From NCBI GenBank assembly GCA_965655095.1, contig OZ296652.1, positions 39,866,001 through 39,930,000 of the forward strand: a DNA stretch of 64,000 bases, read 5' to 3'. The notes below the pieces were generated by a model. That model was not told the DNA's origin. It was given only the letters and a program-made list of their open reading frames with translations, and searched no databases. Both the position numbers and the translations under genes were made by a program. Below, piece by piece: positions 24,349-48,900 of this stretch; position 1 is the first letter of the stretch; every line of letters starts with the position of its first letter. The stretch comes from Haplodiscus bocki (Eukaryota).

Positions 24349-27300
24349 AAATCCATTCCCTTCTTGTCCCTCGTGAAAAATATTGAAAGATTCATTTCGG
24401 GCTGCGATAGTTAATGCTTCTAGAATTACTGCGAACCACTCTCAGATTTTTCTTTTCCTGGTGTGACCTTTTCAAAATTTAACCGTCCTGATACCGGGGC
24501 GTGGGTGTTTCCAATGCAGAACATGAAAAGCGATTCTGCAGGAAGCTGTGATCATATTCATCAACAATTCTAGAGCTTCTTTCAGTTCATCGCCTCTCGC
24601 AATTTTGGTGCTTCTTCCTCCGAGGGGTCCAAGAGCGTCGAACCTGCGGAGTACAGACAGTTCGATCTTGTATACAACCGCGTGATGAAAACAGAGCGAG
24701 AGAGAATTGAACGACCATCTTCCAGCGTTTCTAAACTGGGCCAACAACTCCACTCTAAAGTTGATACTGCCTACTCCAGGGTTCGTTTCCGCTTATTTGT
24801 ATATTTTTGCCGTCCAAAAAAAGTTTAAAATAAATGGGGTTATCTCATGTAAATGAAGAAAGTGATAAATAATACTAATGCTTGGGCTTTTAGATATGCT
24901 TCAATGAAACTTCAGTCTGTGTATTAAGACGGCTAACGAATGTTTTCAGTCAGCGCTTTAAGTAGTATTCTACTAAAAGCACGACAATTACAGTACTTAT
25001 TTTTAGGACTTCGGAAAATTTTGATTTCGCGAGGTACTTATAATGTAACTCGGTTTTCGTGTTTTTTGATGCTTCTTTGTACAACATTGTGCGACCTCGT
25101 CTGAAAGATGGAATTTTGTGCGACTTTGAAAATTTTTGAATTTTTTGTCAAAGCGCAGCAGAGCGGCGTGGGAGTACAGGAGTGACCAAACGGAGCATCA
25201 TAGTTGCGGCGAAAGCGCGTAAAAAAATCCGTTTTTTTGGAAATCCCATCCTTTTTGGCGGCTATAAGTATTTTACGAAATACTTATGTTTTTCAGTTTT
25301 TCTACACTTTTTTGTTCGGCATTTTTCGACTTCATCCAGTACAAAGATTTTCGTGTGATGTTGTAAAAAATGTTTGAAACTTTTTTCAAGACACAATTAA
25401 GCTGCGTGGGAGTACAGGATGGACCCTATGAACCATCTTAGTGTTGATGAGAGCGCGCAATTCTAAAAATTGATATTTTTTCTCACTCGCCAAGTGAATA
25501 TAGTAGCCCTATCCACCAGCATAAATTCGGCAACACAGCGCAAACTCAAATAAAAACGAAAAGTCAAATTCCTCTGAAGGTATTCATTCTTAGGAGCACT
25601 AGTAGCGGGAATGACCGACGAAGTTGTCCTTAGTTTGAACTGTTCAATTTCAATACGGAGTGTTATCCGATCCGAGCAAAGGTCTAGCCTTTCCCAAGCA
25701 AGAATATTGAATATCAAAATTATTCCAACTTTGGTACAGGGGTTAGGTAGGATCTGTTAAGTGGGCCGCGAAGTTAAATTGGGAAGTATTTTCACCTTTT
25801 ATTGAACTGTTTTATCCGGGCAAAGATGCGGCCATTCGGTGGTATTGAAAAAGAAGGGAATTTTAAAAATATCGAAAAACATTAACTTTATTCTAGTGTC
25901 TCAACGACATTTCGCGACCTCGTCCGATATAAGGACTTTCGAGCAACATTTGATATTTTTTCTGTAGAAAACACAGCAAAACTGGGTAGGAGTACAGGGG
26001 GACCCTCCGGACCATCGTAGTAGCGTTGAGAGCGCACAAATCTACAAAACTTTGTCATTTTCCCAGTCAACGTACTAATAAAGGTTAAACCCACTGTTGT
26101 TATCCCAGCATTTTCCCATGTCCTCTCCGCCTTGGGTGGCTATGTTTCTCTTTAGAACATCGGAAATTTTTAATTTTACGAGCTATATATATTATTGCTC
26201 AGTTTTTGTTCTTCTTGCGCTTCTTGTTACGACATCTGCGAACTGGTCCGAAATATGCAATTTTGTGCGACTTTGAGAATTTTTGAATTTTGCTTTCAAA
26301 ACGCAGCAAAGCTGCGTGGGAGTGTAGGAGTGACCATATTGAGCATCATAGTAGCGGCGATAGCGCGCAATAAAGAAAATTCAATTTGTTTGAAGTCCTG
26401 TTTGCCTTCGGCTGCCATATTATGAAATTCATCACTCACTTTACGTAGATTTGACTGACTTCCTTCTTTTTGTTTTGATAATTGCTGAGATTTAATGAAT
26501 AGTGTCCTTCAGCCCTATGTTTTAGCACCCTTATTGTGCTCAATTATTTAATGTCTTCCGTTGGATCAAGTTCCCAATCCCCCCTGTACTTAGTTTATAA
26601 TCACCCCAAATATGCGCAGCAAGCAGCTCAACCAATCAAATTAAAGCAGTTTGCACACACGCGCATCTTCAAGCCAGTTACACTTAGACACAAATAGAAG
26701 CAACCTGAGTTTAAACGAGGTCTCGTTGTTTATTTTTTTGGTTTTCAGAGCCGCAAAGCTGCTCATCAGTTGCTTAATTTTCTAATCTTTTTCTCGGGAG
26801 TAGAAGCATTGTTGGGGGGAATGATTCAATATGTTAATGTAAGTGAACCAATTTAGTCCTGTAATGATGGGTGAAACCGTCAATGAACGAGACACCCGTG
26901 ATGCGAGAAGACCTCAATGCTTTTGTGAACCAATCACGGAACACCTTGATTGGCTGAATTTGTCTGCTAGAGCTGATCATTACAGTAAAGTGCATGTAAA
27001 CATTTTGATGAATATACGTACATTTGATGAATTCGTAATTTGCTACCACTTTCTACGATGGATTCTTAAATGACATGAGACCAGTACTCGAAATTGAAAT
27101 GAGTCTCACTAAACATAAAAAACTAAATCTCGTACCGGCAGAATGTTTTGATTGGCTGAAATTTACGTGCATACTTTTCAATAACTTTGGTATAATATAG
27201 TCAGCAGATGTCTTTACGAACAACATATTGTTACTAATGGCGGCAGGTAAGTATCTCCGAACGTATCAAAGTCACACAAAACTGCCGCCGATTGGTCGGA

Positions 27301-28524: not shown

Positions 28525-29072
28525 CATGTATTTTCCTTCACTCAAATCAAGTTTGAATTAAATACTTACACTATTTGATTGCATTTATCACGGTTCTGAT
28601 AAATATTGACAAAATAGCCATGTTACTGTTACATAAGGTCACAGAAACTGTGAATATTAAACGTATCTACAAATGTAGTGAATATTACGGCCGGAACATT
28701 GTTTCCATTCAGAATCAGGGGGTTTGGTTATTCTAGTTGAACTGTAGATAATTATTTTGAAGGTTGGTTCTGAAAAGAATGTTAGTCCATTCGGCGGTCT
28801 TGATTATTAAGTTTGTGTTACTTGGTTGAAGTTTGATTCAAATAGTCTATATGCTCATTTATTGCATAGTGTAGCTATTTCATCATTCAAAGCAAGGTAT
28901 TCATTCATCTCTTATGCTCGGCAGATTTGTCAAAAGTAATTGCTCAAAGTTTTTCATCTCACTAATATTATCGTTGGTGCCAGCATTTTTCATTGTCATC
29001 TAATGGATTACTGCTGATAACAATAAACTATTGTGTTTTGATTGTCCAGCTGTAGTTGTAGTTATTCCCATC

Positions 29073-30446
29073 ATGACCAAAGTATCCTTGGCAATTTTTT
29101 GCCTATTGCGGTTATATTTGGTTGTAGCAAAGCCTCTTCCCGTCGGTTCAGAATGCAATAATTGCAAACATTTATCTGCAATTGCAATTGGAAAGTTTTC
29201 ACTTGGTGTTGATTGCGATTATTCCCATTGTTTTTCTGAAAGCGGTCGGTTCTTGAATTCTCACACCTCAAATGAAGCTCTGGAAGAACATGTTTTTGAG
29301 TTGAGTAGGAAATTTCCGCTGATAACACAGGTGCAGACAATCGGCCGATCTGTTCAGGGTCGTCCGTTGCTGGTTCTCATAATCTCTGATAACCCGAAAT
29401 CTCATGAATTGAAAGAACCCGAGTTCAAATACGTCGCGAACATGCATGGAGATGAAATTGTTGGTCGCGAACTTCTCATAAATTTGGCCCATTGGCTTCT
29501 TCACAACTACGAAAGCAACGAAACGGCGACAGAATTGATTGAATCAACCAGAATTCATCTTTTGTTTAGTATGAATCCTGACGGATACGCTGGAGATTCA
29601 AATGGCAAAATACCTCAACGCGGAAACGCCAACGGTGTCGATCTTAACAGAAATTTCCCAAATCTGAATAAAATAGCGTTCAAAAACTTAGAACTGGGCA
29701 TTTGTGAGTCGGAAAACTTGGATAAAAAATATGCAAACCTTTCGACTGATGTTGCCAAAGCTGAGCTTGAAACTCGTGCAATCATTAATTGGTTAGAAGA
29801 AGTGCCTTTTGTGCTAAGTGCCAATCTACATGGAGGAACGTTTGTCGCTAATTATCCCTATGACTCCAAAAGTGGCCAGAACCACTCCAAAACACCTGAT
29901 GATGACCTGTTCAAGTCGCTCGCAATGACATACTCCAAGTCACACGCAGTTATGGCAGCTGCCACCAATTCGGTCCCTTGGTTTTTCCAGGATGGAATAA
30001 CAAATGGAGCTTCTTGGTACGAAGTTGAAGGGGGTATGCAAGATTATAATTACGATGCATCAAATTGTTATGAGATAACTTTGGAACTTAGTCTGTATAA
30101 GAACCCAAATGCCAGTATGCTCTGGATGTACTGGCATCAGAACAAAGATGCGCTTCTTCACTTCATGAAAAAAGTTCACATCGGCATGAAAGGAGTTGTG
30201 ATGAATGTAGATGATGAAATTGTCGCCGATGTTCAAGTAATAGCCCGGCATTCGGGACTCAAACATGACCCAATCACGTGCCACTCAATATCGTCTACGG
30301 TTTATGGAGATTTTTTTCGGTTGCTGCTTCCAGGCACTTATGACATCGAGTTTCGACATCCCGATTACAAAATTGAATTGCTTTCAGCTGTCGAGGTGGA
30401 AGATGACGTCACTGATGTTGGCACAATTTTACTTCGCTCCTCTTGA
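29073..30446 (+). CDS. Secreted M14B metallocarboxypeptidase (carboxypeptidase E/D/M-like), 457 aa, uninterrupted ORF
   Basis: Signal peptide MTKVSLAIFCLLRLYLVVA; zinc ligands in NMHGDE and SANLHGG; substrate-binding DLNRNFP; GITNGASWY; catalytic Glu in EITLELS; C-terminal transthyretin-like domain (GMKGVV...GDFFRLLLPGTY). The first ATG is at 29073; the ORF-track start at 29031 is TTG. Confidence 0.95.
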   Translation: MTKVSLAIFCLLRLYLVVAKPLPVGSECNNCKHLSAIAIGKFSLGVDCDYSHCFSESGRFLNSHTSNEALEEHVFELSRKFPLITQVQTIGRSVQGRPLLVLIISDNPKSHELKEPEFKYVANMHGDEIVGRELLINLAHWLLHNYESNETATELIESTRIHLLFSMNPDGYAGDSNGKIPQRGNANGVDLNRNFPNLNKIAFKNLELGICESENLDKKYANLSTDVAKAELETRAIINWLEEVPFVLSANLHGGTFVANYPYDSKSGQNHSKTPDDDLFKSLAMTYSKSHAVMAAATNSVPWFFQDGITNGASWYEVEGGMQDYNYDASNCYEITLELSLYKNPNASMLWMYWHQNKDALLHFMKKVHIGMKGVVMNVDDEIVADVQVIARHSGLKHDPITCHSISSTVYGDFFRLLLPGTYDIEFRHPDYKIELLSAVEVEDDVTDVGTILLRSS

Positions 30447-31365: not shown

Positions 31366-31557
31366 TAGAAGTTTATATAGTGGAAGTCAATTTTTTCGTT
31401 TCAATTTCAGTAATTCATTTTCCTCATGAATTTCTAAGCGGGCAGACTGAAGTTTCTCTTAGATCCCAACACTGAAAATGTTCTGAGGCCGGTTTTTGAA
31501 AACTTACCTAGTTGAATTTTTCCGAAGTTTGCTTGAGTCCAGTATTCTTCGCCCTAT

Positions 31558-32185
31558 TATAGCGACCCTGCTTTGGGTGCTATGATTTTTGTAAGTTCTT
31601 TTTGCTACGAAAGAAAATTTGATACTTGCAAGAAATAAAATAAATAGTTAGGTTAAATAATTAAAACATTAAAAGTTAGGATTATTAAAACAAAGCATTT
31701 ACAGAAGTGAATAAACATAAAGCACTAACATTATTGGTTTTCTTCGTGATGTAGAGAGGGGAGAAGAGGACAAATTTAAGATTATTTTTCTTTAAGAGGA
31801 GAGAGAGAAGTTAAATTTTGCTGTATAGAAGAGCTGCTGTTTTCTGCACAAAAAGATTGTTACGATTGTTAAAAGAGAGACGAAGGAAAAGTGTGTGATG
31901 GAAAAACACTCACCAGATGGCGGCTATTACGAAGATGTCTACTTCACTAATCGTAGCTGTTTACGAGTGATGACTGATATACTTCATCACTCGTTTTCTA
32001 CAACGAACTGCTACGAGGAACGAATTATTAACGAATTACTCTGATTGTGGTAACGAGAGGTTGACTAATAATGGCCTGGAGAGCCTGGAGAAAGTGAAGT
32101 AAAAATTGAGTACATATTTTACAGAGGTCACGTACTAAAAGCAAAAAAATGAAAAATATTAAACAGTTTTGTTCAGTTTGTTATA
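31558..32185 (-). repeat. 3' LTR
   Basis: Direct repeat of 45371-45998, preceded on the element strand by the PPT. Confidence 0.95.
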
Positions 32186-32188
32186 CGG

Positions 32189-32200
32189 CTTTCTTCTTTT
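32189..32200 (-). promoter_or_regulatory. Polypurine tract (AAAAGAAGAAAG)
   Basis: Purine run preceded by a U-tract, 3 nt upstream of the 3' LTR on the element strand. Confidence 0.7.
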
Positions 32201-32229
32201 AAAAAAATGCGTCCCGCATTTAGTTGTGG

Positions 32230-33196
32230 CTACTTCCAATATTCGCTGGTGTCGATGTCATTCATGGGGCAACAGCGGCTGCATTGGTGTCGTTTTTGAT
32301 TTCGTACAGCTCTCATGCCGCAGCAATCAAGGATGGCGCGGGTGCGGTTGGAGGAAAGTATGCTGTAGAGGGTTGTTAAAAGGGTTGGTACCTCGGAGGG
32401 GCATTCAGGGTGCTGGTCGGGGTGTGTTAATCGTTCAAGTTGCAGGTATTGTCGGCGAATTGTTTGCGGGTGTGCTTGAGGGCCTAACCCAAAGAAGTGG
32501 TAAGTCTTCAGCGGTAAGGCGGTCAGAAGTTTCAGTGAAGCTGGACAGAATTTCGAAGAGCATGCTGAGAGCGCGGTCGTTGTCTTTAGAGATTTTGCTT
32601 GTTTTCTGCATGTCCTCCAGGCGGGACTGTGTGTTGCGAAGATCGCGCCGCAAGGTTTCATTTTCAAGAAGCAATTGATTGACTCTGGTTGTCATATGTG
32701 GTAGACGTTCTTGTTGTCGATCCAATAGATTAGAACGCTCTTTTAATTGCTCTTCAAGACGCTCAAGTTCGTCTGCTTCGCGAAGAAGAGCAGCAAATTC
32801 TCGGTGCTCAACCGAGTCAGTGATCGAACCAACAGTGGATGTTAAAGGCGGGGTTGTAATAGTACTGGCGTCCATGGCATCTGGTAGAACCGGGGGCGGA
32901 ACGGGGGAACACAAGTTACAATCTTGAATGGGATCAGTATTAACAGTCAACTCAGTTACATGTTTGGGTGGGGCCCAAAGCGCTGAAAAGCCAACAAAGA
33001 ATGAGCGGCGACGGCTGTCGAATGCAGGGTGAATCATTACACTATTCGTTGAAGGTACAACGCGAACAACATGGTACGGAGTTGGGTCCACAATATACAC
33101 GGTGTCACCAGGAGCCACATCCGTAAATTGACCGTTAGCAGTGAGAGCTCGGGATCGGGAATGAGACCTGAAACAAAAATGCTTGAAAAGGTTCAT
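32230..33196 (-). pseudogene. Accessory ORF: beta-rich N-terminus, coiled coil, DnaJ J-domain (HPD); one frameshift near 32503
   Basis: ORF 32435-33196 reaches ...LTAED. Skipping one nucleotide (GAC t TAC) continues YHFFGLGPQAHPQTIRRQYLQLERLTHPDQHP..LTTLYSILSSNRTRAILDCCG, matching the J-domain consensus DYY.LG....A....IK.AY..L....HPD....AY.VLSD...R..YD..G. Confidence 0.8.
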
Positions 33197-33556
33197 TAAA
33201 ACACTAAAAGGAAGACGGCGAGTTTCTTACGCGTGAGCGTAGGTGGAAAACCTCTTGAGCTGACTCAAAGACTCGGCGGAAAAGTTTTGCCGGAGAGCCG
33301 AAACCTTCGACTAAGCGTCGAGAAAAGAAAACCTCAGTGTCAAGCACTGGTCAAAAAACGTCACAGCGTGTGAGTTAGGCACGACCTAAGGAGGGGTGGG
33401 AAAAAGAAATGCTCGCGCTACAAATACGCGGAAAACTCTCGGAGTAAAACCCGAGGATAGAAGCATGATTTGACCTCAGTGAATTAGCACTGGACAGAAG
33501 TTGTTTGTAATACATTATATATAATAAATAGGACATAATATTGGAGCGGGAGAAAT

Positions 33557-35950
33557 TTACGGTGGTCGAGCATTAGGTGTGGAGTGCGCGTGAGCAACAT
33601 CGGGGTAAAGGAGGGGTTGTTCTGCTGATGCGTTGCTAGTGGGACAAGTGACAACTTTGCGGCGTGCGAGTACTTCTTTAGCAAGTTCGGATAACGCTGA
33701 AAACTCGTCTTCGGTTAAGTAGAGAAACGCAGTTGTTGCTTGCGTATCATCTGCGGCAAGCTCGTTAACAATATGTAAAAATCGTCCGTGTGTACCGCGG
33801 AAAAAGCGTTGCGGATGAGTGATGAACTGCTTCCATTGACGTCTGAACAAAGTGAAACTGATACTAAAAGAGATCAAAGAAATGGTCATGGACAAAAGAG
33901 CTAAACACAAGGCGCTTTTTGTCTGCATATATCTTTCAAGCGATTTACTCGTGGCTGGTGGAGTGGAGGCGTAGTAGTGAGAAATTGGCTCAGCGACTTC
34001 TTTGAGTTTATCAAAATCCATAGTGTGAACTTCAGGTAATTCTGCTATTTCCATGCGGACACTAGTTAAGACAGACTTGCGTACCTCGCTGTGAGAATAG
34101 ATGTTGAACTCTGCACTCGGTGGTGGTAAGGACTCAAAGACCTTTTGCAACGATGGGGTTAGTTGCACTTTGGCAACAAATGGCTCCGGACGAGTTTCAC
34201 AGTAATCCATGTCCGGGTTCAAAACAAGATCTCCATGGTTGAGCGTCAGTTTCGACGAGCAACCTGGGCGAATGACACATGCTTGACAATCAATAGTGGA
34301 CATTCTAGTGCCATGAGAATTGGTATCGTTCATCATCGGAAGGTGGCGTTGTCGTGAGATGACATGATAAAGACCATCTGCGAGGTAGAAAGCTTGCGGG
34401 GCATCAGGTAACAGAACTGATTCAACATGACAATTTCGAAGAGCAGGAACACTAAAGTTATAAAACAAAGACGTTAAGCACAACAAGGTCACATCTGTGG
34501 TAGTGGAAAATCCTGTTAGGCAAAGTTTGATTCTGTTCGTGCCGGAACACTGTTGTAACGTGGCGACACCCAGTTCGGCGTACTGGGATTTATCAGTCGC
34601 GATAGCTAAATAGTCATGACGGAACTGATACAAAGAAGCGGTAGAACCATCCTCATTGGGCTGATACAATGGAATTACACGGAGAATATTGAATGTGGCA
34701 GACTTTGAATTCATGGGTATTCCTTGTACAACAGAGATACCAGAAGCTAAGATGGAAACTTGTAACACAATTTGAACTTCGTAGTATGTTGCTTTGTAGC
34801 CGACTTGTATGGCTGGTGTTAGCTTTGTACCACGATGAACTTCTTCCATCGTGAGTTCATGAACAATCTCGGCTAGACGATTGGGTGTTAGGAAATTAGG
34901 AGTGACATAGCCGGACGATAATGAAGAAACTGCTGAATAAAGATTAGTTCTGTAAGAAACGAAAGCTGATCGGTAGGCTTTAAGGTGAGTGTAGACAAGA
35001 TCCAAATATGAAGTGTAATTTTCGACTTTAAAAACAAGGTTACTAAAGTGTTTAGTATGGACTACACAATGGTCGAAAAAGTTCAAAGAACGAGTGAGTT
35101 GGTCTATAGCTCTAGAGGTAGCGGTAAAACGGTTTTCAACAACGTCTCTAATTGCCTTGACATTTTCTTGTGTCTTTGAAATCTCCGAGCCAAGGAAGAA
35201 AAATTTTCTGTCGTTGGCTGTTTGAACCGTTTTCATTGTTTCGGCGAAAGAATTCCGTTGGGCCATGAGGGTTGAAATGTCCTTTCTCAAATCTTTATTA
35301 TCACTGCACAGTTTGAAGGTAGAGAGAGCACTGCATGCTGCATCTTTTAAAGGGTTACCAAGAATTAGGCCGGCTGCTCCAGATGCAGCCATCAATGCGG
35401 GAATAAGACGACGTTGCCGAGAATGTCCCGTTTGGCCTTTGTCTTCGTTCGCTTTCGTGGGCGGCGGTGCGAAAGACTCGGCAACTCGAAGGAGTTCAAG
35501 GTGATCATCTGCAATGGCTTTTTGCTCTTTGAAGAGAAGATTCACTCGATATTCGATTGACTCAGCTAAACCTGCCAACTTTGCTAACATATCATTGGTG
35601 TTGACGACGCAATACATGGGTGTGGAATAATATTTGCCTGTGGTAGGATCGATATTATCTTAGTATTTCTGACCGGTATTGGAAAGGTTTTGACGCGCCT
35701 CTAAAACGATCTGGCGCAGGCGGAGGGCTCCAGCTGGATCAATTGCTGGTGGCTGTGGAAATGGTGAAAAAAGTCTAACTTTACTCTCACTTTCAGATGT
35801 GACGGCTTGATAAGTGTAGATAAACACTGCGCCTCGTTGGAAAACCGAGTCTTCTTTCTCGGAGCCCACACTTGTTTGGAAAGTAACTTCAGAACTGATC
35901 ATAAGGAGCCAGGATTTCAGGAAGATAATGGAAATTAGCCAAGGACACAT
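33557..35950 (-). pseudogene. env: env: class I F-type fusion glycoprotein, 797 codons with one in-frame TAA (35660-35662)
   Basis: The signal-peptide ORF 35660-35950 is in frame with the 686-aa ORF 33557-35617. Furin site RQRR, fusion peptide LIPALMAASGAAGLILG, heptad repeats, Cys-rich region, TM helix ALCLALLSMTISLISFSISFTLF and a cytoplasmic tail. Confidence 0.88.
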
Positions 35951-36305
35951 TTCGGGGCGTTGATACTAAACAGAGTTACAAATGGAGGAAGAAAGAAGAA
36001 TACTACATGGAGACAAGTGAGATAAATGACTAAAAAAATGAAGATTACTTTTTCCTATCATGCTTTGAATTATGGGAGCTATTTTTCTTTTTACTTTGAC
36101 TTGTATGCTCTGACTTCAAGTTGCTGGGCAAGTGCTTCTCTAATTGATGAAGCGGTTGTGCATGACGTTGAAGTAATATAGTCGAACGTAGTTGACGCGG
36201 ACATACGGTCTGGTTGGCAGACGCTTCAGGGGTAGCTGAACGTTCTAAATTTTCTGCGGCGTTAGAGATGAAACTTTCAATGGAAAGGGAGGAGAAAGGT
36301 GAGTC

Positions 36306-37997
36306 CAGGGTGGCCACTTGGTCCCTTTTAAGGGACCTGGTCCCTTTTGGTCCCTTTTTTGTCCCTCAACTTTCAAAAGTCCCTTTTTTAAGGGACCTAG
36401 GGTTGATCAATTTAGACACATTTAGAACAGATCATTAATGTGTAGTAGCTTGATAATAACTTTTTTGTATACCTAAACATCAACTGCGGAATTTCTTGTA
36501 TATTGTTGCCAAATAGCCTATTTTCAGATGTTTCAGACCTATTTGAAACAGGTCTGAAACATTTGTTTTTCAGATGGGTGTATGTAAGGTTACTGAGACG
36601 CTTCTGTCGAAATTCCGATGGACAGTGAGGATACCGGGTGACGAACATCATGTCGAATGCAGATATGACGGCAGGATTCTGTCTGTTAAGGAGGGATGTG
36701 GATCTCTCGAGCAACATCAAACCTACGTCGTCCATGTTACTTCTGAAGCAGTACACTCAGGCGAGTATTAAAATACTTTAATTAGACCTTTGCGTTCATT
36801 AATGCAATATTTTTTACGAAATCAAGTTACAATCGAGATAGCAAATGCCAGAGCCACCACTGTTGCAACCAGCGTGCGAAAGGCCACAATTCTCCATGTT
36901 TTAAACTTGGTCCTCAATAAGCATTCATTCAGATCCAGTGACAGTGCCACCAGGAAACGAGCCATCTACGCCAAGATGTTCCCCGATTCCGCAACAACAG
37001 TGTCCCAAGATAATCGATTTTCCGGGATGCGCTTCTCACCAGTTGAACTTAATCCAAAAGTCTGAAGTGCGCGCATTCGACACCTTCGCTCAAATTGTCA
37101 AGATTATTGAGCTGTTTTCAAGTCTCATTCTTCAAATTATCCGCAACTGGGGTACTGGATGAACTGTTGTCATTTCGGACTGATCTGAGTGAAGAGCAAC
37201 GTACTAAGACACTTAAGTGCTTGTACGAGGATGGCAGCTGCAGCACATTTCATCAATTGACTGAGCTGGTTGAGTCCTGCCTACTGGTTTCTACTCACAA
37301 CATGATTGTCGAATCCGGATTTTCACTGATGAAGACAACTGAGACAAGTTACCAAAGCAATATGACCACAGAAACATATGATGCGTTGAGGACCATACAA
37401 GATTTCTGGGATGTTGAAGACTTCGAAGAAATCGAAATTACGAGTGAATTGGAATCATCAGTAGCTTCGGCCAGTGGACGGTATCGCGAGGTTACGAAAG
37501 AGAAGCAAGTTTTAAATTCCAGAAAGAGAACCTACGCGGAAGAGTTGCGGACCGAAGTTCAGGTATTTAAACGAAAGTCAACACTGACGGTTCAGCGGGA
37601 AATCACAGCGACCAACAATGAGCTTGAGCAAGCTCGGAAGCTGGTATCTGACCTTGAAAGCCGCAAAGCGATGTTAACGAAAGAACGCGACGCACCATCG
37701 ACCTGGTTTCTCTGAGTGCCCAAGGCCTCTGTTATAATGTCTGTTATAATGTATTCTGTTTAAATGGACCAAAGTTACTGGTCACAATCTCTTGCGTTTA
37801 AATAGAATTCTGAGAAATCAGTTCTTAAGTTAACATTTCTTTTTTTTTCTAGTAGTGCCTCTTACAATTCAAGTATAAAAGAGGGTCCCTTAAACGTCCC
37901 TTTTTCTATTTACGGGTTAATTTCAGGTCCCTTATTGGTCCCTTTTTATGAGGCTTCGCAAGGTCCCTTTTTCTTCGAAATAAATGTGGCCACCCTG
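36306..37997 (+). mobile_element. Internally deleted hAT DNA transposon nested in the pol 3' tail
   Basis: Perfect 12-bp TIRs CAGGGTGGCCAC, perfect 8-bp TSD GGTGAGTC (36298-36305, 37998-38005), subterminal GGTCCCT/AGGGACC repeats. Transposase remnants: HSFRSSD..KMFPDS (36790-37065) and dimerisation-domain-like HNMIVESGFSLMK (37095-37715). Confidence 0.9.
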
Positions 37998-39720
37998 GGT
38001 GAGTCTGGTGGTACGGACAGGTTCTTGGAGGAACTTGAAAGATCAAAAGTGTCATTAATTACAGTTCGAGATTGTGCTTGCGATGGAACTTGAGAAAAAT
38101 CTTGAGGTGGGCCACAAAGGGTGGTTCTGCTGGGAACCGAGGATGCTCGTTTTGTACTTGCAAGAGAAGAACTTTGGATGGGAGTTTCGGGGACAAAAAC
38201 TGCAGAAAATAGGGTTGGAGAGGCACTTCGGGGTCGAGGGCTTGGTGGAATTTGGTGGGACAGAGTTTGAGAACAGTTTTCAATGTTCGTGAGTAGCGAA
38301 GTGCGATTTTTGTGGCGGTTTGCTTTCCGGTGCCCTGGGGAGACTTGGTTCACGCCGTGGAAGCTGTAGTTCTGGACGTTGAACGAAGGGCTTTAAACGG
38401 TCATAATGAACGATGGTCTCTTTTTGGTTCACTGTATTTTTGATTTTATATGTTACGTCGTTAAGACACTGTACAATTGTGTATGGACCTTTCCACGGGG
38501 GTGAAAGTTTGGGACTCAGTCCTGTAGAAATTACAGAGCTATGTAACCAAACATTGTCACCTGGCTTGTATCGGGGGCCATGCAATTTAGAATTATACAA
38601 AGCGTTGCGTCGCAGTTGAGCAGCTTGACGATGGAGACGTGCTACTTCGTGAGCTCGTTGCATGTCAACACGTTTTTGTTGAACAAACTGATGCACGTCG
38701 GTTTTGTTGGGTTGTTCTGGCGAAGGGTACTGAATATCAATGGGAAGCTTAATTTCTTCGCCAAAAACAAGAAACTGCGGTGTATAACCTGTCGATTCAT
38801 GCACTGAAGTCCGAAATGCCATCATCACATATGGAAGTTGCTGAGTCCAATTGCTTAGGAAATCATCAACAGATTTGACCAACATGTTTAGTAAAGTTCT
38901 GTTCATTCGTTCGATTACAGCATTTGATTGTGGATGGAAAGATGTGGTTCGCGTTTTATCAATTTGAAGGGACTGCATGAGACTTTGAAAAAGTTTAGAC
39001 TCGAAGTTTCGGCCTTGGTCTGTGTGAATGCTCACGGGAACGCCAAAACGACTAATCCAGTGCTCAAGTAATGCGGTAGCAGTCATTTCAGCTGTCTGAT
39101 CTGGCAATGTGACTGCTTCATACCACTTTGTGAAGTGATCACCAAATAATGCTATAGAGGAATTACCATTTGAGACTGGAAGTGGTACCAGGAAGTCAAT
39201 ACCAATGTGGGCAAAAGGGAAACTGGGAGGCCAATTGACAAGGCTGTGTCTATGTTTTTGCTTGGGGCTGTTACGTTGCTGACAAACAAGACAACTTGAG
39301 ACAAACACACCGACATCTTTCTTATGTCCTGGCCAATAGAATCTAGCTCTAAGCTTTTCTAGAGTTTTTGTTACTCCTAGGTGAGCAGCTGTTGTGGAAC
39401 TGTGAATTGATTTTAGGATTTTGGGTCGCAATGTTGTTGGAATGACTTGCTGTAAATGACTTTGGCCTGTGCTCGAATCCTCAAAACTTCGGCACAGGAT
39501 ATCATTTACGACTTTGAGGGAGTCGAAATTTTTCCAGAGAACCCAAACGTCTTTTGACTGGCCTTAAAGGACTGAGCGATGGGGTTGTTTCTCGTTTTTA
39601 ACGCAATAAAGAACGGTGCTAAGGCTCTGACCGTCTTCTTGTGCTTGTTGCATGTCATTCTTTGTTCCTTTTTCTTTTCGAGTCCCGCTAGGACTGGGAA
39701 TTTGCTGTTGCGGTTGCGTC

Positions 39721-40133
39721 AAAACCGTAACTTTGATGGGCGATTTGTGGAAGCCATCCGTGATGATTCCTTTTACTTTCAACCAATTTAGCTTGTCGAG
39801 TCCTGTCGACAGTCGTGGTATGCTTATCTTTTCAATATTGTGTTTCTGCGCGTGTTGCAACATGGCTTCCAATGCTGCACGTAGGGAACTGTACGTCGGT
39901 TTGTTCCAAAATCTGGGCTTGACTATCAAGTGATAAATAAATCTATTCGGAGAAATTTGCTGTGCATAAATTTTTTCTTTCGATGCCTTCGACCCAAACT
40001 CGGGGTACGTGGTTGGGAACGCTTCCCGAACCTGCTTGGCAATACCTGTTGCAAGCTTGAAATCTGATGGAATGCTATGCGCTATTGAGTCTGTGGAATC
40101 AAATAGATTTCCACTCACTTCTACTAATTCGAT
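39721..40133 (-). other. TARG1/OARD1-like (Poa1p-like) macrodomain embedded in Pol between RNase H and integrase
   Basis: SGNLF..DSIAHSIPSDFKLATGIAKQ..RFIYHLIVK..NKPTYSSLRAALEAM..ISIPRLSTGLDKLNWLKV aligns by eye with human OARD1 (KGDLF..DSLAHCISEDCRMGAGIA..YIYYLITK..HKPTYENLQKSLEAM..LSMPRIGCGLDRLQW). Confidence 0.9.
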
Positions 40134-42574
40134 TTTCTTTGATTTTTCTGTTTGGCAGACTATCTGCACGAAGTCAAAACTTTGTTGACTTCTCTCTTCT
40201 TCAACATCTCGAGTATAGGGATGCTGTTCTTGCAATTTTGGCATCATGTGCCCTTTTCGCTGGGTAACTGGTTCTTTTTCCTCGTTCGTGCGAGGACGGT
40301 TTGGCCATCTGTGTCACTTATTTCATTGTTATTTTGCGTTGGTTGTTTTGCTTCTGCACCGCGCGCAGGTGCATTCACCAGGTCCGTGGTAGCGTCTTGG
40401 TTGGGAATCCTAGACATAGAATCCGCGTGTCCAATACTTTTTCCAGTGCGATGGACAATTTCATGTTCAAAAGCTGCTAGTTTTTCGAGCCAACGTGCCG
40501 TTAAACCATCGGGGTCTTTGAAATTATGAAGCCACTGCAAAGTTCTGTGATCAGTGACAATTTGAAATTTTCTTCCTAACAAGTAGTGCTTGAAATGTCT
40601 GGTGAAATTCACAATGGCCAAAAGTTCACGTTTCGATTTGAGCGAGAACGGCAGCCATTGCATGCTGGCTAGCATCAGTATATAATATGAAAGGTTCTCT
40701 CATGCTCGGGAAGGCCAAGATTGGGGCGGAAGTGAGTCTGGGCTTCAGAACTTCAAATGCTTCCCGGGCTTCGGAATGCCAAAGGTAATCCTTTGATTTC
40801 TCGGTCAGTTGATGCAGGGGACGGGCTATTTTCGCAAAGTCTTGCACATATCTTCTATAGTATGAACAGAGGCCTAAAAAGCTTTTGACTTCGGTAGCGT
40901 TCTTTGGTACCGGGTATCTGTTGACAGTGGAGGTTTTATCAGGATCGGCTTGGATGCCTTCACGGCTCACAATATGGCCCAAAAAGGGAACTTTTTGCCG
41001 GAAAAACTCACATTTGGTCGGATTGATTTTGAGATTGGCGTCTTTGAACCATTGAAAAACTTCGCGGAGGCGCTCTAGGTGTTCTTCGATTGTGCGAGAG
41101 AAAATGATGCAATCATCCAAATAAGGAATTGTAAACTTCCAAGTTAGGCCTACAAGTACCTTTTCCATGAGACTCTGAAAAGTGTTTGGACTGCCGGTGA
41201 GGCCCATTGGCATGCGCAGCCATTTGAATGATCCGAATGGTGTACTGAACGCTGTATAGTCCTGACTTGCTTCTTCCATGGGGAGTTGATAAAATCCCCA
41301 AGACATGTCATTGGTAGAGAAGTAACAACTACCTTCCAAAGTGTCAAAGATTTCCTCGATGGATGGTATCGGCCAACAAGACCTAATGGTCTGCTTGTTC
41401 AACTGCCGATCGTCAATGACAAGTCTCAGTTTACCATTATTCTTTGGAACTAACATAGCGGGTGCACTGTAAGGGCTATGGCACGACTCAATGAGTTCAT
41501 GCTCAAGGAAATTGTCCAACTTTTCCTGAAGGTCTGTTTTGAAATGCATTGGCATCCGGCGATTGGGAAGTTTCACCGGAGTTGAACCTGGGTAAACTTG
41601 AAATCTATGTTGTACGAGATCACATTTTCCGATGTCCCATTCATCTTGCGAGAAAACAGCCGAAAAGTCACGGAGCAGCTGCGCAAATTTGGCATGGGAA
41701 CTTTCGTTCATGACTGGCTTCGCTTGGTGGAGGATGCTTTGGTGGTGGAGATCATACTTGGTGATTGCGGTGTGCTTCTGCTTTGACTGAATCGCTACAT
41801 TGTTCTGGGCGAACGTGTCTTGCAGGATGGTGAATGTTCCTAGTGTTGAGCCTTTATAAATCATTCGATCTTCTCCGGGATTAATAATACGTGCTGGGAT
41901 GGCATCCTCTTGAAGTTCGGAAAGAGTGTTGAAAGCCAAGACATTTTGTTTGTCGCAGAAAGATTGTGAAGGTTCAAAGATTCCTGCTTTTGTCAAGAAG
42001 GTGTGATCATCAAGGTCAATCTTACCTAGAATAATCGCTCCGTGACCGGAGGGTATGAAGGATATTTCTCTGGCAACTAGTCTCATGACTGGGTAGTGCC
42101 AGGACTGAACCGGTGCTGTTCGATGGAAAAGGTCTGCGGAGGTACCTCGGTTCAAACGCAACTTCATTTCAGAAAACATAGGATCACACTTGTGTGTCTC
42201 AAGAAAGTCAATGCCTAACAAACACTCAGCTTCAGAAGCTTCAAGGACAAGAAAAGTATGTCGAAAAGTCATTGATGCTATTTTCATTTCAACTGTAACT
42301 TCACCTTTTACTCTAATCTCGCCTTGGTTGGCGGCTAGGAGTCGTCTAGAACATGGTTTCAGAGATAACTGTATCTTTGGAGGAAGACGAACAAACACTT
42401 CGGGGCTCAAACAAGAAACACTGGCGCCTGTGTCACAAACGGCATCTAACGCAATTTCACAGACCGTAACTCGTACGAAAACACTTTTGTCATCCACCAC
42501 TGAGTTCAAACATTCCGTCTTTTGGAGGCTTTTAGAGTTCCCTGCGCAGTTGCGTCGTTGATACGCTGGTGCTT

Positions 42575-43653
42575 TCAGTTTAAATGTTGGCGTCGGGCAC
42601 GGCATTCGTGCCTTAAGTGACCAATTTTGCCACAAGTGAAACATGCTTTGCACTCACGGCTGGAATCGTTGTTTCGGCCACAATGTTTGCATTTTTCGTC
42701 ATCACTACGCTGCGAACTGGAACTTCGGTCTCGTTTGTTGTTTTTGGAGTTATCTGAGAAGCGAACTTTCGAGTTATTCCTCTGATTGTTGCTGTTGCGG
42801 GCGGTGTTCCGCTAGTTGGGCTGATTAGGTTTTTTAAAGTTGGAAAAGTTGTTATTTCGTCTCGGGCCTGGTGAGGGAGACCGATATCGGTTACTATCTC
42901 GACTGTCTGAGCGATCTCTTTGATTGTTCTGGGAAGCATTTCTGTCGGTACGTGAAGACTTAGCCACTGCGTCTTGAATTTCTGTGCGGAGACTACGAAT
43001 TAACTCATTAAAAGTTTCGAGAGGGCTCTCAGTGCTGATATTGTTAACACCAGAATTTTGTAATTTTAAACCGTCAATTTCAAGAAAAGAGTGAGTTTCC
43101 ACTGCTGCTTGCAGTGCGGCGTCAGCATCTGCGGGTTTCGCTTTGCGAACCTCCCACCGAACAGTTGGGTTGGACAAACCAGCAAAAGAAGTGGTCAGAA
43201 GGATTTCGTTGCGGACAGCCTCAACAGGATATGCATTGCGGGCTAAATCTCGCAACTCTCGAAAAAAAGCGGGGATGGTTTGTCCTGGTTGTTGACGGAG
43301 AGCTTTAACTTTAGCTTTGAGTACATCTTGATTAGGAGCTACTGGGCGCGAAAAGCGTGAAAAAGGCGATTCATGTTAGTCTGCTGGGCTCGAGTCAGGG
43401 AGCGATAGAAACTCAAAGCGTCACCACTGAGGCGGGCAGAAAAGAATTGAGGACGCAAGTCACCTGATGGGTGGTTTTCCCAATCAGAAAGAGACGCAAC
43501 GGAATTGAACTGAGTAGCAAAGTCTTCAAAATCAGTGGTGCCATCAAACGGGGCGGGCAAAAGACAAGAGTAATTAGGCATGACTGTGGCACCAGAGGAC
43601 ATACTGGAAGATTGTTGTGATGCCACGTTTGGGGCTTGATCGTCGGGGTCCAT
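42575..43653 (-). pseudogene. gag: gag (capsid plus two zinc knuckles), disrupted
   Basis: PAPFDGTTDFEDFATQF..RLSGDALSFY..ALRQQPGQTIPAFFRELRDLARNAYP; knuckles CKHCGRNNDSSREC and CFTCGKIGHLRHEC. 1-nt deletion near 43340, TAG at 42812, natural TGA at 42575-42577. Confidence 0.9.
42578..42584 (-). promoter_or_regulatory. -1 ribosomal frameshift heptamer U UUA AAC at the gag-pol junction
   Basis: gag ends CAT TTA AAC TGA; the -1 frame reads TTT AAA CTG AAA GCA (pol frame FKLKAP); a GCGT...ACGC stem-loop follows. Confidence 0.8.
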
Positions 43654-43988
43654 AGAAAACAGAAACTAGAAAAAAAATCAAATAGACGTTCGACACATGG
43701 ACATATAATCGAGGATTTCGTTCAATTCATGGGCCTGGTAAAAACAAGTGAAAGGAGTGACACACTGATATTCAATCAAACATGAATAAAGGTAGTTCCA
43801 AGTTGGGGTTTATGGAGGCACAGAAATCAAATCAACATGTGAATGATTATTAGAGGAAGCGAAAGTTGATTATCGGAACCATCGGTACGACAGCGGATCT
43901 CAGTAACGAGTACGGGACATGGACAGCAAGGAGGAATCCATGAAAAAGAAAACGGAACAACAGTAGTTCCAACCATGAAACAAAGAGA

Positions 43989-44627
43989 CTAAGAGTCAAC
44001 AGACCAAAAAAGGTAAAGAACGAAAGAGCAGTTTGAAAACAACAAACAAAGAATACACAAACAAATGAGAAGAATCAAGAGCCGGTCAATAGAGTGTAAG
44101 CGAGCCAAAGTAGGAGAAATAGTGTCAGGAGGGAAATGCATGGCGCTTTCGTAGCTGGGGAGAGGGGTAGCTTGAGCCTGTTCCGGAGGATTTCCAGAGA
44201 CATTAGAAGTGGAGGAATGTACGGTGGAAGAAGAAGACGTGGCAACAGTGGCACTGGTCGAAGGCAAAGCGGATAAGCGCGGAGTTGAGGCGACTGGTTG
44301 GGCCGTTAAGATGTCAGGGTTGTTGTGGACATACAATTCCAAGTAAAGGAGCCAAAGATTTCCGAGGAGGTAGAAGGTGAGCGCATCGTGAACAGAAGAA
44401 TTATTAGTTTCAGTCAAATAAGACCAAGTGGAAGTGCGTGAAAGATGTGACTGGTAGTGCTGATTGAGAAGGACACTGTGAAGAAGTTGCAATGAAGAAG
44501 GGACCGGGCGACCCTAACCAAGAATACAAGAGTATGGATTTTTAGCTCGTGCACACTGACAAAAATAACAGGGGAAGGCAATGACAAAAGGGCCAGAACT
44601 CGTGTGAACAGTGTGGTAAACGGACAT
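43989..44627 (-). pseudogene. ORF0: accessory membrane protein upstream of gag (one in-frame TAG)
   Basis: ATG at 44627 (MSVYHTVHTSSGPFVIAFPCYFCQCARAKNPYSCILG*) is in frame with ORF 43989-44492 across a TAG at 44514-44516. The product has a Ser/Thr-rich region, an LPSY motif and a C-terminal hydrophobic Cys-rich helix. Confidence 0.5.
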
Positions 44628-45353
44628 AGAAACGATTTAATAAGTTAATTTATTTTGGTAGAGAAGCGACGAGAAAGGTTGAAAAACACGGCAGAACGCA
44701 ACGTGACGAACGGACGGCCAGGAAAGAACGTAACGGAAGTAACGGCGACAAAACAAAAAAGGCGGCGGAACGACGAGGACGAAATCGGAGCGTCGTGTAA
44801 AGTGAAAATCCTAAAGGTGGGGGTAGCAAGGCACTGCCGCGACTCCTACACCAAGCAATCTCAGTGTTGAACACCGGAGGGACGCCTAACTTAGTCTAGT
44901 TGGTCACCCATACGGAAGAAATTCACTGGACTGAAATGCTAGATCAAGTGAAAGCAGTTACTCATCAAACGTGTTGATGGACAAACAATAGTATTCTCAG
45001 TGAAATTGCAGGCCGTGACCAACTGATTGAAAAAAGTGCCTTGTCATGGGAACCATACTCCAAGAAGATAAAAATGAAAAAAAAAAAACGAACGCACGGA
45101 TCGGCGCGGGTTAGCAAAAACGGATGGAAGCGCGAAAAGAAAAACAAAAGGTAGTTCGATAAGCGAACTGTTGAAATGAAATCACTTTAAATAGCAGACA
45201 TCGAAAAAACAAAAAGGTGAAAAAAAAATTGAAAACTGCAGCGCTGATGCTGTTTAAGAAAAAATGCTAACGAAAACCAGGCAGAAAAATGTGCTAGAGG
45301 CCAGAGAAAAATTTAGAGGATGCCTGTGGGTGACATTCAAAATGCTAAAAAAA

Positions 45354-45365
45354 TGCCTGTCACCA
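45354..45365 (-). promoter_or_regulatory. Primer-binding site (TGGTGACAGGCA)
   Basis: TGG (complement of the tRNA CCA end) lies 5 nt inside the 5' LTR; similar to a tRNA-Leu 3' end with one mismatch, tRNA identity not established. Confidence 0.6.
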
Positions 45366-45370
45366 TTTTA

Positions 45371-45998
45371 TATAGCGACCCTGCTTTGGGTGCTGTGATT
45401 TTTGTAAGTTGTTTTTTGCTACGAAAGAAATTTTGATACTTGCAAGAAATAAATTAAATAGTTAGGTTAAATAATTAAAACATTAAAAGTTAGGGTTATT
45501 AAATTAAAGCATTTACAGAAGTGAATAAATATAAAACACTAACATTATTGGTTTTCTTCGTGATGTAGAGAGGGGAGAAGAGGAGAAATTTAAGGTTATT
45601 TTTCTTTAAGAAGAGAGAGAGAAGTTAAATATTGCTGTATAGAAGAGCTACTGTTTTGTGCACAAAAAGATTGTTACGATTGTTAAAAGAGAGACGAAGG
45701 AAAAGTGTGTGATGGAAAAACACTCACTAGGTGGCGGCTATTACGAAGATGTCTACTTCACTAATCGTAGCTGTTTACGAGTGATGACTGATATACTTCA
45801 TCACTCGTTTTCTACAACGAACTGCTACGAGGAACGAATTTTTAACGAATTACTCTGATTGTGGTAACGAGAGGTTGACTAATAATGGCCTGGAGAGCCT
45901 GGAGAAAGTGAAGTAAAAATTGAGTACATATTTTACAGAGGTCGCGTACTAAAAGCAAAAAAATGAAAAATATTAAACAGTTTGTGCAGTTTGTTATA
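45371..45998 (-). repeat. 5' LTR
   Basis: Direct repeat of 31558-32185 (about 20 differences counted by eye); element-strand termini TATAACAAA...GTCGCTATA. Confidence 0.95.
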
Positions 45999-48900
45999 CT
46001 ATGAATGATTCATCGTATTTTTAGTTGGCTCTGTTTCAGTAGAAGTGCTCGACTATTACACCGGCTTTAATAATAAGACGGCTTAGTTTCCTTCAAATCA
46101 ATCCCATTTTTGTACACATTTTACGCGAAATTCTTCCTGGTCGTTAACTAGGTGATCTTTGAAGGCGAAACTTTGAACACACGAAAAGCCCCTTCAGATT
46201 TCTCAGCAATTTGAGTTTTTTGGACAAAAAGTGCAATACTTCCTTTTGATACATGTCAATTCTTTAAAATCATATTTCTGATCATCATAGTGTTCCTTAA
46301 AGTTTTGGCATTGGCAGACCAAAACACTTCCGACAAAAAATGTGATTCGGTGTACTTAATAAATCGATTTTTTAAAAAAATCAAATGACCTCCTCCATGA
46401 GTGCTTTCAACCTAAACTCGGGTATTGACAACAGCCATCACGGCGCTCATCGGCTCTTTCCAAATTGCATCATTTTGGCTCTTAAATCTTCAATTGCTTC
46501 ACGTCTGCTAATTTTCTCGGTCTCAGCCAAGGCTTTTCTGAAAGCTTACAATAATTTGATGCTTCCAAGTGGAACTGATTTTTCGAGGTTTTCATTTTCG
46601 TTGTTTACACATTCTGACTGAAGGCAAGAATTTGTATTGTAAACGGCTAATGTCCAGTTGTTAGAGGCGACCAAGTGAAGCGAGTAAGACTTCTATTGTT
46701 GACACTTCTGTCATAGTGACACATTTTTGAACGAAGTGAAAATTTCGTTCCCCGCTTACTGCTTACTTGCAAATTTCCCGCCCAATTTACCATTTCACTA
46801 CATTTAAATCTTCCAATCAAAAATTTTGACCGTTTTTACGTAAGAAACAATATAAATCAGTTAACTAACATTTTTTGAAATTTTGCCAATTTCCGCTGTA
46901 TTAGATGAAACTAGGCGTAAATTATTAATTTTGCAATTTTTACCCGAATTCTGAAATTTTTGCTACCCATATAACTTTAACTTCTGGCTCGGAATTAACT
47001 TTACTCAATTTTTGACCAAAAATGCATCTTTCTGCTGTGGAAAACGCTAATTTGTGAGATTTTTAATGTGAAATTATTGGTAATTCAACAATTTCTGACC
47101 GAATTTCTCCATTTCGGCCCTAATTTTTGCTATTTTAACTAATCAAAACAAATTGCCCAGCCTTCAATCAAATTAGGACGAACGTACAGTTTTTGGAACA
47201 TAATACTCTTTTTGCTGAACGAAAACTTTTTTGCGTTTTTTTAAATACACGAAAATGGCTCATTTCGTTTTTTCGGTACTTTCACTGTTTTGCTTTCTCG
47301 TCTTGGTTTTTAAATACGCATCCAGTATAAATTAATACAAATTTTTGATTTTTGAAGCTTTTGCAAAGGTTTGATATTTGTCAAAAAGGCGTTTCTAATA
47401 ATTGAAAGTCAGCCAGAATTAGCGGATGTCGTAATTATCCCCCGTTTTGGGTACTTTTGCCTGCATATCAACTTCCTAGCTACTTTTGCCAACTAAGCCG
47501 AGACAGATGCACGAAATTGATTTTTGCAAATCCGTTATTTATTCAGGTTTTTTCGGTGGTTTAAAGTAATCGACGAGTAGCTTGTTTTTGATTTGCGGAT
47601 TTTTCGACTTGTGACTTTCAATTCTATTATTCTTCTACAGTTGTTCCAAATTTCTTCTCAATAATGGCATAAAAGTTTGAATTTTCAGAAAACTTTGAGC
47701 AGTTTCAAAAACAGTTATCTCGATAACGGTTCATATGATTTTTCCCCGCATGGCCTCAATCGAAAGCTAAGCGTTGTTAGAGATGATCACATGTAGTTTT
47801 TTCTTGTTCGTTTCGGCTTTGCGAAGAAATTCTTCGGAACTGCCACAAAACCTAATTTGTAGACATCTATCCATTCTGGAAGACTTTTCTTTAACGGATC
47901 TTTGGAATTGTTCATTCCAATATTTTGAATGTTTTCCCCCATAACCGCTCGTTGGATTTTACTCGGTGGGCCATATGTCTCCGGAAGTGACTCAGTCGGC
48001 TCCAGTTTGTAGATAATTTTAAAGTTCTCGAAAGTTTTTTTTTGAAAACACTTGGAAATACAACATGTAACAACTCAGATCGATTTTGTTCTTTCTTTCC
48101 CACTAAATTCCGTTTCGTTATCAAATTATATTTAGGTGCCGGCAGGGTCTAATTTTTTAATCAGACAGTATGACAGGCACTATGCAAACGTCCTAAGCTA
48201 AAGGGACATCAATGACATCAATTTATTAATGTGACACGGTGTGGCAGGTACTCGCTAATTTACGGATTTTTTGTGTAAATCACTTGAACATTCAGTAGCA
48301 AAATGATGAAGTACCCTGAAACAGCTCGAGAACCGCCTGAAGTTGGCGCGCCTATCGGCGGGACACGAAAATTTGTGTGAACCATAGAGGAGTCATGTCT
48401 TCTTTTTTTCTCTCAAAGTGCCGAAAAATTTCAATGTTTCTATGATATTGAGCTCTAAAGCATTACGAAAAACTCGATATTCTTTTTTCGTCATTTGGTG
48501 AAATTCGAAGGATGTTTTCAAAAAGATCGTGATCGCCTAGCAAGGTTTCTCGAAGATCTTAGATGTTTGCGTTTGGGGAAATTTTTCGGAATTTACAAAG
48601 GTGATATCAGTTTTGTTGTGTCACAGTTGCTGAAACTTCGTGGGAGATACCGTTTAGTGTTTCGCAAAAATTTTTCCTTTGCCAGCAAAGCGTTTTATTG
48701 AACGAAAAGTGGGCCGTCCAACGAATAAAAATGGATCGTTTCGAAGCTAGAAAAGTGTCTTGCGAAAAAACTCACTGTAATAGTTGGGCATTTTTCTTCT
48801 GGAAAGTACCGACTAAAACATGACTGATTTATCAAAAATTTGAATCTAAGAGAGTATGGCAAGTACTAGTTTTTTTGCGTTGTTTACTATGCAAAATTCT

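Follow-up and report, generated by a model that had tools for sequence, protein, structure and literature searches.

The window analysed here is a 64,000-nt stretch of the Haplodiscus bocki genome (NCBI GenBank assembly GCA_965655095.1, contig OZ296652.1, positions 39,866,001 to 39,930,000 of the forward strand). On its minus strand, between positions 31558 and 45998, lies a Ty3/Gypsy provirus in which ORF0, ORF0b, gag, pol, env and a J-domain open reading frame (J-ORF) stand in that order between two long terminal repeats (LTRs). The hallmarks of Ty3/Gypsy elements are present, namely LTRs, a primer binding site (PBS), a polypurine tract (PPT), a short target site duplication (TSD) and a pol order of protease, reverse transcriptase (RT), RNase H and integrase. 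A Pfam scan of the window gives, in order, protease, RT, RNase H, Macro, integrase and DnaJ, and these matches together with those of the Env profile bear out the order of gag, pol with a macrodomain, env and J-domain ORF that had been proposed in an earlier reading of the letters alone (hereafter the sequence-only reading).

The unit is flanked by CTAT on both sides (31554..31557 and 45999..46002), as that reading had it, and exact 4-bp TSDs are found in 8 of 10 paralogs. These paralogs, used for comparison throughout, are 10 LTR pairs spaced about 12.8 kb in the 1.5 Gb host genome, an LTR search of which returned 359 candidates (the best 40 were scored). Both LTRs of the window copy are 628 bp long on the minus strand, the 3' LTR (31558..32185) having the ends TATA...TATA and the 5' LTR (45371..45998) including a predicted splice donor AT/GTTAG (slash at the cut, G at 45543). 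The pair, aligned over 629 columns, shows 20 substitutions and 2 columns with gaps, in agreement with the roughly 20 of 628 positions first counted; the fairly recent insertion concluded from that count suits the family, but suits the window copy less, which is a decayed one. A purine tract at 32189..32200 (minus strand), 3 nt short of the 3' LTR and similar in 10/10 paralogs, confirms the PPT. The reported PBS (45356..45365, minus strand) does match the 3' end of host tRNA-Leu(CAG), although over 10 nt only and starting 5 nt past the LTR, versus an 18-nt complement of the same tRNA in the distant families described below. The LTR termini are TATA..TATA or TGTA..TAAA, not TG..CA, across the window family and the distant families, and the LTR contains a strong 32-nt hairpin (31963-31994, z about −5). 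Elsewhere in the genome a tandem array with a period of 424 bp (G000:C1:161094500-161176000) matches the 3' part of tRNA-Leu(CAG), with 525 exact genome matches.

The window copy itself is dead, of middling age, and belongs among the decayed copies of its family, with stops in ORF0, gag, pol and env and frameshifts in gag, pol, ORF0b and the J-ORF. The description of 31558..45998 as one provirus therefore stands in that the unit runs from LTR to LTR, but it had missed that every gene is broken and that a 1.7-kb hAT-like DNA transposon sits in the pol tail (36306..37997, plus strand). This insert shows the hAT hallmarks of an 8-bp TSD (GGTGAGTC) and short (12-bp) terminal inverted repeats; it has no Pfam transposase match, and positions 37053-37715 resemble the hAT dimerisation end by eye only. 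It contains a strong hairpin at 36525-36565, its dispersed genome relatives are 95-99% identical with varying internal length, and it is without counterpart in 10/10 paralogs. As the nested transposon is foreign to the family, the family unit is about 12.8 kb rather than 14.4 kb. Contigs from 3 of 4 sequencing runs of one study span the nested transposon, and the LTR end shows many unlike flanks.

The architecture of the element is almost certainly a property of the family. All 10 paralogs are collinear with the window copy at 88-94% identity, and each of them has a counterpart of ORF0, ORF0b, gag, pol, env and J, with intact frames in 1, 5, 2, 1, 1 and 6 copies, respectively. Of 8 sites from an older sister subfamily (RT 67-80%), 3 preserve the gene order all the way from ORF0 to J and the others are fragments. 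In an RT tree restricted to this clade, the long branches are decayed copies. The LTR pairs of the paralogs are 92.6-100% identical, and 11 of 150 scored genome matches to the J-domain encode a 100% identical protein in the same open frame. LTR pairs of up to 100% identity and identical J-domain matches together indicate that the family is amplifying still or was very recently.

Querying the genome with a macrodomain taken from a distant database relative gave 6066 candidates, of which the best 150 were scored, and 7 distant loci define three further families at identities of about 80% for RT, about 50% for Env, about 48% for the macrodomain and 25-35% for J. An ORF0-like frame, gag, pol with macrodomain and env are present in 7/7 of these loci, ORF0b in 5/7 and the J-ORF in 6/7, with LTR pairs 99.7-100% identical in 6/7. 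ORF0, macrodomain and J-ORF are thus common to the copies, which was the point on which the sequence-only reading had made itself refutable. The nearest outside Env relative with DNA (31% identical) lacks a macrodomain between RNase H and integrase, and a J-ORF was not found in the 560 nt after its env, which suggests, from one outgroup only, that both were gained in this lineage. Database relatives of the J-ORF amount to 42 and 86 matches, all of them from ENA, and relatives of the element were not found among viral contigs.

Selection on the reading frames points the same way. Within the family, dN/dS (pairwise against one query copy) is 0.28 for ORF0, 0.33 for ORF0b, 0.21 for the macrodomain, 0.06-0.17 for J, 0.21 for env, 0.28 for RT and 0.64 for the pol tail; within the distant families it is 0.06-0.44 for ORF0, 0.06-0.09 for ORF0b, 0.15 for J and 0.19 for a further frame, ORF-X, described below. 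In comparisons from one family to another, amino-acid identity is 47-66% and synonymous sites have reached saturation. Ratios well under 1 combined with saturated synonymous sites mean that the accessory frames are real genes of the element, and from these patterns we consider that the accessory proteins are very probably made and useful. Conservation across the family and the clade, along with these ratios, also supports the proposal of a "complex" invertebrate endogenous retrovirus lineage. The modules may not always have travelled together: the J cassette is more diverged at synonymous sites than env and pol are, pairwise identities are discordant, and two copies are 97% alike in env and 93% alike in J (loci L002-L020), which suggests exchange of the J cassette between sublineages.

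How the J protein might be started is of interest in its own right. The J-ORF exon (32230..33167, minus strand; Pfam DnaJ 5e-8) encodes an N-terminal beta-rich domain, a Pro-rich linker, a coiled coil, a J-domain and a Cys-containing tail, and is preceded by a predicted acceptor (33167..33190, minus strand) consisting of a pyrimidine tract and CAG, with the exon starting at the G at 33167. This tract with YAG/GTCT recurs in 10/10 paralogs and 6/6 J-bearing distant copies. The frame is open from the acceptor through the HPD motif in 5/6 distant copies, with the first Met 79-114 codons in where counted, and this Met-less stretch (the first 80 codons) shows 66-84% identity from one family to another, with saturated synonymous sites. 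The candidate donor AT/GTDAG occurs once per LTR, 171-231 nt before the LTR end, in four families; it is present in both window LTRs, 7/10 paralogs and 5/5 distant copies, any such motif being found in 7-11% of shuffled LTRs. AT plus G would fall in frame for env in 5/5 distant cases, at distances of 16, 22 and 40 nt, against 0/18 for the starts of other ORFs, while the window env has a predicted acceptor (35965..35990, minus strand) 15 nt ahead of its ATG. A start codon made by AT + G splicing is known for env of Drosophila melanogaster gypsy, as described in the accessible parts of two papers (PMC2585583; bioRxiv 2023.08.03.551782), and we regard a splice-made start codon for J as quite likely on these sequence features.

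We consider it rather unlikely that J starts instead at its own internal Met (in the window family), at a non-AUG codon or in some other upstream exon, the LTR motif being no donor. The window family does have a Met 14 codons into the J exon, the motif frequency in shuffled LTRs leaves room for chance, and the genome search for a spliced retrocopy returned one match, with a mismatch and unrelated to the element. The distant families, however, have no Met ahead of the conserved 79-114-codon domain, and the G of the acceptor is in frame for J in all families as it is for the distant env starts. A two-exon J protein made through a donor in ORF0, ORF0b, gag or env was considered and rejected, as none of these holds a conserved donor in the required phase 2.

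The pol frame (36045..42605, minus strand) encodes protease, RT, RNase H, macrodomain, integrase and a long Pro/Ser tail, and in the window copy is interrupted by two stops, frameshifts and the nested transposon and lacks about 74 bp of RNase H at 40635/40636. The embedded macrodomain claimed for it proved to be a TARG1/OARD1-like domain between RNase H and integrase (39715..40130, minus strand), with a Pfam match. Its closest solved relative is human OARD1/TARG1 (E 2.9e-24), the next class following at 8e-4, and the bridge holds the macrodomain and, between it and the integrase zinc finger, some 80 residues more. A second RNase H, such as the duplicated pseudo-RNase H of the insect genus Errantivirus, was not found in pol by Pfam. 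The accessible part of a review gives the TARG1 catalytic pair as Lys84 and "Glu125" and describes the enzyme as stripping ADP-ribose off acidic residues and nucleic-acid ends (PMC7050489). The OARD1/TARG1 PDB chain has Asp at position 125, versus the review's Glu, and the positions of Lys84 and Asp125 are kept in 10/10 sequences from all families and two database relatives. Judged by these residues the macrodomain is probably catalytically active and, lying within Pol, would reach the replication and integration complex. That its purpose is counter-defence is a tentative suggestion, to which we give somewhat less than even odds.

The J-domain ORF is equally well borne out, with the HPD motif (at about 32416-32424 in the window copy, which has a frameshift near 32503) kept in 9/9 J sequences from all families and the family hallmark, a J fold with HPD after helix II, present. 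Counted from the first Met in open-frame paralogs, the J protein has 298 residues. In a search with the J-ORF family profile, cellular PDB J-domains rank first (best 1.7e-8), and the ESM Atlas gave sub-0.9 matches only. The predicted complex of the J-domain with host cytosolic Hsp70 and ATP scores 0.67 against 0.07 for the best control, the mark applied being reached by 51/78 solved pairs and 2/108 mismatched pairs, with contact agreement between runs of at least 84% and partner pLDDT of at least 78. In this model helix II and HPD lie against the Hsp70 interdomain linker, the canonical site. Since like J-Hsp70 complexes have already been solved, the score may reflect those known structures, and the model shows likeness rather than binding; with that in mind, action of J through Hsp70 seems probable. 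ADP-ribosylation reversal and Hsp70 recruitment, the host-manipulation functions first suggested for the element, are compatible with the kept catalytic and HPD residues and stay proposed roles. The host Hsp70 and BiP genes are intronless or have a single intron. Roughly 14 units of 2.73 kb stand head to tail in an array (G000:C10:69550000-69588000, L031-L033). Each carries J-ORF, LTR and leader without gag, pol or env, and most are frameshifted in the J N-domain with coiled coil and J-domain retained.

Both accessory domains could conceivably be binders or decoys rather than catalysts, with the macrodomain serving as an ADP-ribose reader that guides integration in the manner of chromodomains, and the J-ORF sequestering Hsp70 or working mainly by its coiled coil. 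This would fit the position of the macrodomain beside integrase within Pol in all families, the degenerate helix II of the distant J-domains, and the presence of TARG1 at DNA damage sites reported in the literature available in part. We find it unlikely, as neither the catalytic positions nor HPD vary between families that share just 25-50% identity, and the modelled J-Hsp70 interface is canonical.

The env frame (33557..35950, minus strand; 794 codons, with a premature stop near codon 97 in the window copy) encodes a signal peptide, an RQRR furin site (35408-35419) followed by a hydrophobic fusion peptide, a coiled coil and a C-terminal membrane anchor, as in an F-type class I fusion protein. 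The single Env sequence had no PDB match and none in Pfam above cut-off. A profile of 37 relatives matches a solved fusion protein at 1.1e-8, and a model built on the relatives' alignment reaches pLDDT 78, versus 34.5 for the single-sequence model. That model finds paramyxovirus F as its best PDB match (6e-7), and among viral models it comes closest to baculovirus F and chu-like glycoproteins, at TM-scores that are low (0.2-0.4). Profile, model matches, furin site, fusion peptide and anchor together bear out the F-type assignment. It is improbable that the element is a retrotransposon confined to the cell, with an Env that is either used for cell-cell fusion or being lost, which would make "endogenous retrovirus" the wrong term. 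Several shorter copies with env deleted fully or partly could be read in this way, and the lineage is known here from genes rather than from particles or infection; yet the env dN/dS is low like that of pol, furin site, fusion peptide and anchor are retained, and env is present in 7/7 distant loci. That the extra ORFs are passively captured host fragments, or the unit a chance nest of unrelated insertions, can be dismissed, for although one nested transposon is indeed present in the window copy, the other modules recur in 10/10 paralogs and the distant families under purifying selection with saturated synonymous sites.

Our reading, to which we give a probability of roughly 0.7, is thus that the decayed provirus in the window comes from a complex Ty3/Gypsy lineage with env, which has split into several families in this genome and is still amplifying. 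Its life cycle might run as follows. Full-length RNA would give Gag and, by −1 frameshifting, Gag-Pol, with reverse transcription primed by tRNA-Leu and Env providing for passage of particles from cell to cell. The TARG1-like domain carried with Pol may remove ADP-ribose from acidic residues or nucleic-acid ends at the time of reverse transcription or integration, which could counter a PARP-type defence. The 5' LTR donor would be spliced to acceptors ahead of env and the J exon, donor AT and acceptor G forming the start codon. The J protein, probably oligomeric via its coiled coil, would then deliver cytosolic Hsp70 to whichever client its N-terminal domain selects, possibly in particle assembly or uncoating, or in a host silencing complex.

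Several observations weigh against this account. The env acceptor of the window family lacks AT + G, env there having its own ATG; the donor motif is absent from 3/10 paralog LTRs and from 1/3 sister regions, and the J acceptor is altered in 2/3 old sister copies. The predicted donor also lies upstream of the PBS, where the usual retroviral major donor is not placed. The distant-family J-domains lack the basic helix II residues and fall below the Pfam cut-off, which may weaken Hsp70 stimulation. Within-family dN/dS pairs share one query copy and are hence non-independent, the Env model matches have the low TM-scores given above, and splicing and gene products alike are predictions from sequence.

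Comparison with described systems, for which the accessible parts of the cited papers were used, places the element among env-bearing Gypsy lineages. F-type env Gypsy elements are widespread, and the "ancient errantiviruses" with F-type Env (Chary and Hayashi, eLife 2026, PMC13524379) share with the window clade the gag-pol-env order, furin site, fusion peptide, multiple copies and invertebrate host; their F-type Env features, including the anchor, are found here as well. The window clade differs from them in its bridge macrodomain, two ORFs before gag and the J-ORF after env; in the bridge of the ancient errantiviruses a "mini" domain comes after RNase H. The main text of that paper, as far as it was available, contains no mention of macro or DnaJ/J-domain, and a macrodomain could be among the "outlier" bridge folds that it leaves unnamed. 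Errantiviruses of the Drosophila gypsy/springer subclade (PMC2585583; bioRxiv 2023.08.03.551782) have the AT + G start and F-type Env in common with it. In gypsy, though, such splicing serves env alone, whereas the predicted donor here lies in the LTR and would serve an accessory gene too, and a macrodomain or J-ORF is not reported in the accessible parts of those papers. Bdelloid rotifer LTR elements (PMC5408684) are likewise Gypsy-like with a paramyxovirus-type F and captured enzymatic ORFs, but their extras are a GDSL esterase, DEDDy nuclease or dUTPase, usually as one ORF3, with macro/DnaJ unmentioned in the parts available.

On the vertebrate side, fish epsilon-like endogenous retroviruses (ERVs) carry macro-domain or CNPase ORFs, the macro domain being an additional ORF (PMC4977317), and lokiretroviruses combine an F-like Env with an extra coiled-coil smc-like gene (PMC7947760); both are Retroviridae-side lineages and, in the text accessible to us, without a J-domain, unlike the window Gypsy clade. 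Tor elements of Oikopleura (PMC4402516) are also marine invertebrate Gypsy elements with env, and have a subgenomic env RNA, but no such accessory set is described in the available portion, and the present host does not use the tunicate mitochondrial code. The code under which its COX1 reads, judged by eye, argues equally against a flatworm, echinoderm, cnidarian or vertebrate host. The polyomavirus T-antigen, as described in partly available sources, is a virus-encoded J-domain recruiting Hsc70, in a DNA virus; it is a functional analogy only. The accessible parts of four further papers (PMC4695847, PMC9040795, PMC7217437, PMC3383448) hold nothing relevant to the accessory set. Published extra ORFs in bdelloid env-bearing elements and fish retroviruses mean that the statement that simple errantiviruses have only gag-pol-env, set against this element, overdrew the contrast.

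The RT_RNaseH, Integrase_H2C2 and Retrotrans_gag profiles of the element are Gypsy-type and its Env matches are F proteins, which sets it apart from Retroviridae; it works like a complex retrovirus and is not one. We found no report of a Gypsy element with a TARG1-type domain in Pol, or of any retroelement with a J-domain gene, in the open-licence PMC and bioRxiv literature. Env-bearing Gypsy elements with extra ORFs are already known, and it is the combination of macrodomain and J-ORF for which a report was not found in these sources. Macro-plus-RT architectures occur in automatic annotations, and the macrodomain by itself may therefore be less of a novelty than the J-ORF.

The accessory genes that mobile elements carry are pointers to the host defences that need to be beaten. 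That a TARG1-like eraser is fixed in Pol under selection in thousands of copies suggests that the retrotransposons of an invertebrate are held in check by ADP-ribosylation. The J-domain gene, also under selection, opens a way of testing with small purified domains what part Hsp70 plays when Gypsy elements assemble, uncoat or are silenced. If the predicted splicing holds, Gypsy elements too have arrived at the layout of complex retroviruses, with several genes and multiple splicing. At its boldest, the element would belong to the first retroelement lineage with its own Hsp70 co-chaperone, a Gypsy clade that independently evolved the complex-retrovirus programme (one LTR donor, several acceptors, splice-made starts, three to four accessory proteins) and whose TARG1-type eraser and J protein defeat ADP-ribosylation and chaperone-dependent silencing, a proposal we hold as speculative and slightly less probable than its opposite.

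Upstream of pol, ORF0 (43998..44627, minus strand; 215 codons in paralogs, one stop in the window copy) has a PCxxCQ motif in its conserved N-terminal part, a Ser/Thr-rich stretch and a hydrophobic tail. The tail, with a mean hydropathy of 3.0 in the window family, supports the membrane protein that had been proposed there, but it is absent from distant-family ORF0, which has 122-139 residues. ORF0b (43681..43976, minus strand; 99 codons, without Pfam match) is conserved, is broken in the window copy and had been overlooked. The gag frame (42575..43653, minus strand; 359 codons in paralogs) contains Retrotrans_gag and two CCHC knuckles and is frameshifted and stopped in the window copy. The −1 frameshift assigned to its end is backed by a slippery heptamer U UUA AAC shortly before the gag stop (42578..42584, minus strand), at which frameshifting would occur.

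ORF-X follows the J-ORF in 4/7 distant loci from two families (L049:6835-7524 and three others), with 204-229 codons and a basic C-terminus. A genome search gives about 1900 candidates; no Pfam or PDB match was found, ESM Atlas matches are all below 0.9, and a likeness to SGNH hydrolases is based on motifs by eye only. The env-J spacer (33168..33556, minus strand) holds several short hairpins, including two CAGTG..CACTG stems, as a weak signal. Its folding is only a little more stable than that of shuffled sequence (z −2.0, with 9 paralogs between −1.4 and −2.4), and of 28 windows of 50 nt just 1 is strong. This does not sustain the hairpin array claimed for it, the clear hairpin being the one in the LTR.

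Elsewhere in the window, an intronless M14 carboxypeptidase gene (29004-30446, plus strand; Pfam 1e-69) lies about 1.1 kb from the 3' LTR, and a decayed BEL/Pao element occupies 56400-62700, with Peptidase_A17 at 60333-60950 and a 255-bp direct repeat (56410/62449, 87%). A 250-bp repeat pair (25002-25246 and 26151-26398) is 78% identical, and short tandem repeats of 15-19 nt occur at 17133-17213 and 20738-20798. On a small contig of the assembly, COX1 gives a sensible reading, by eye, only under the invertebrate mitochondrial code.

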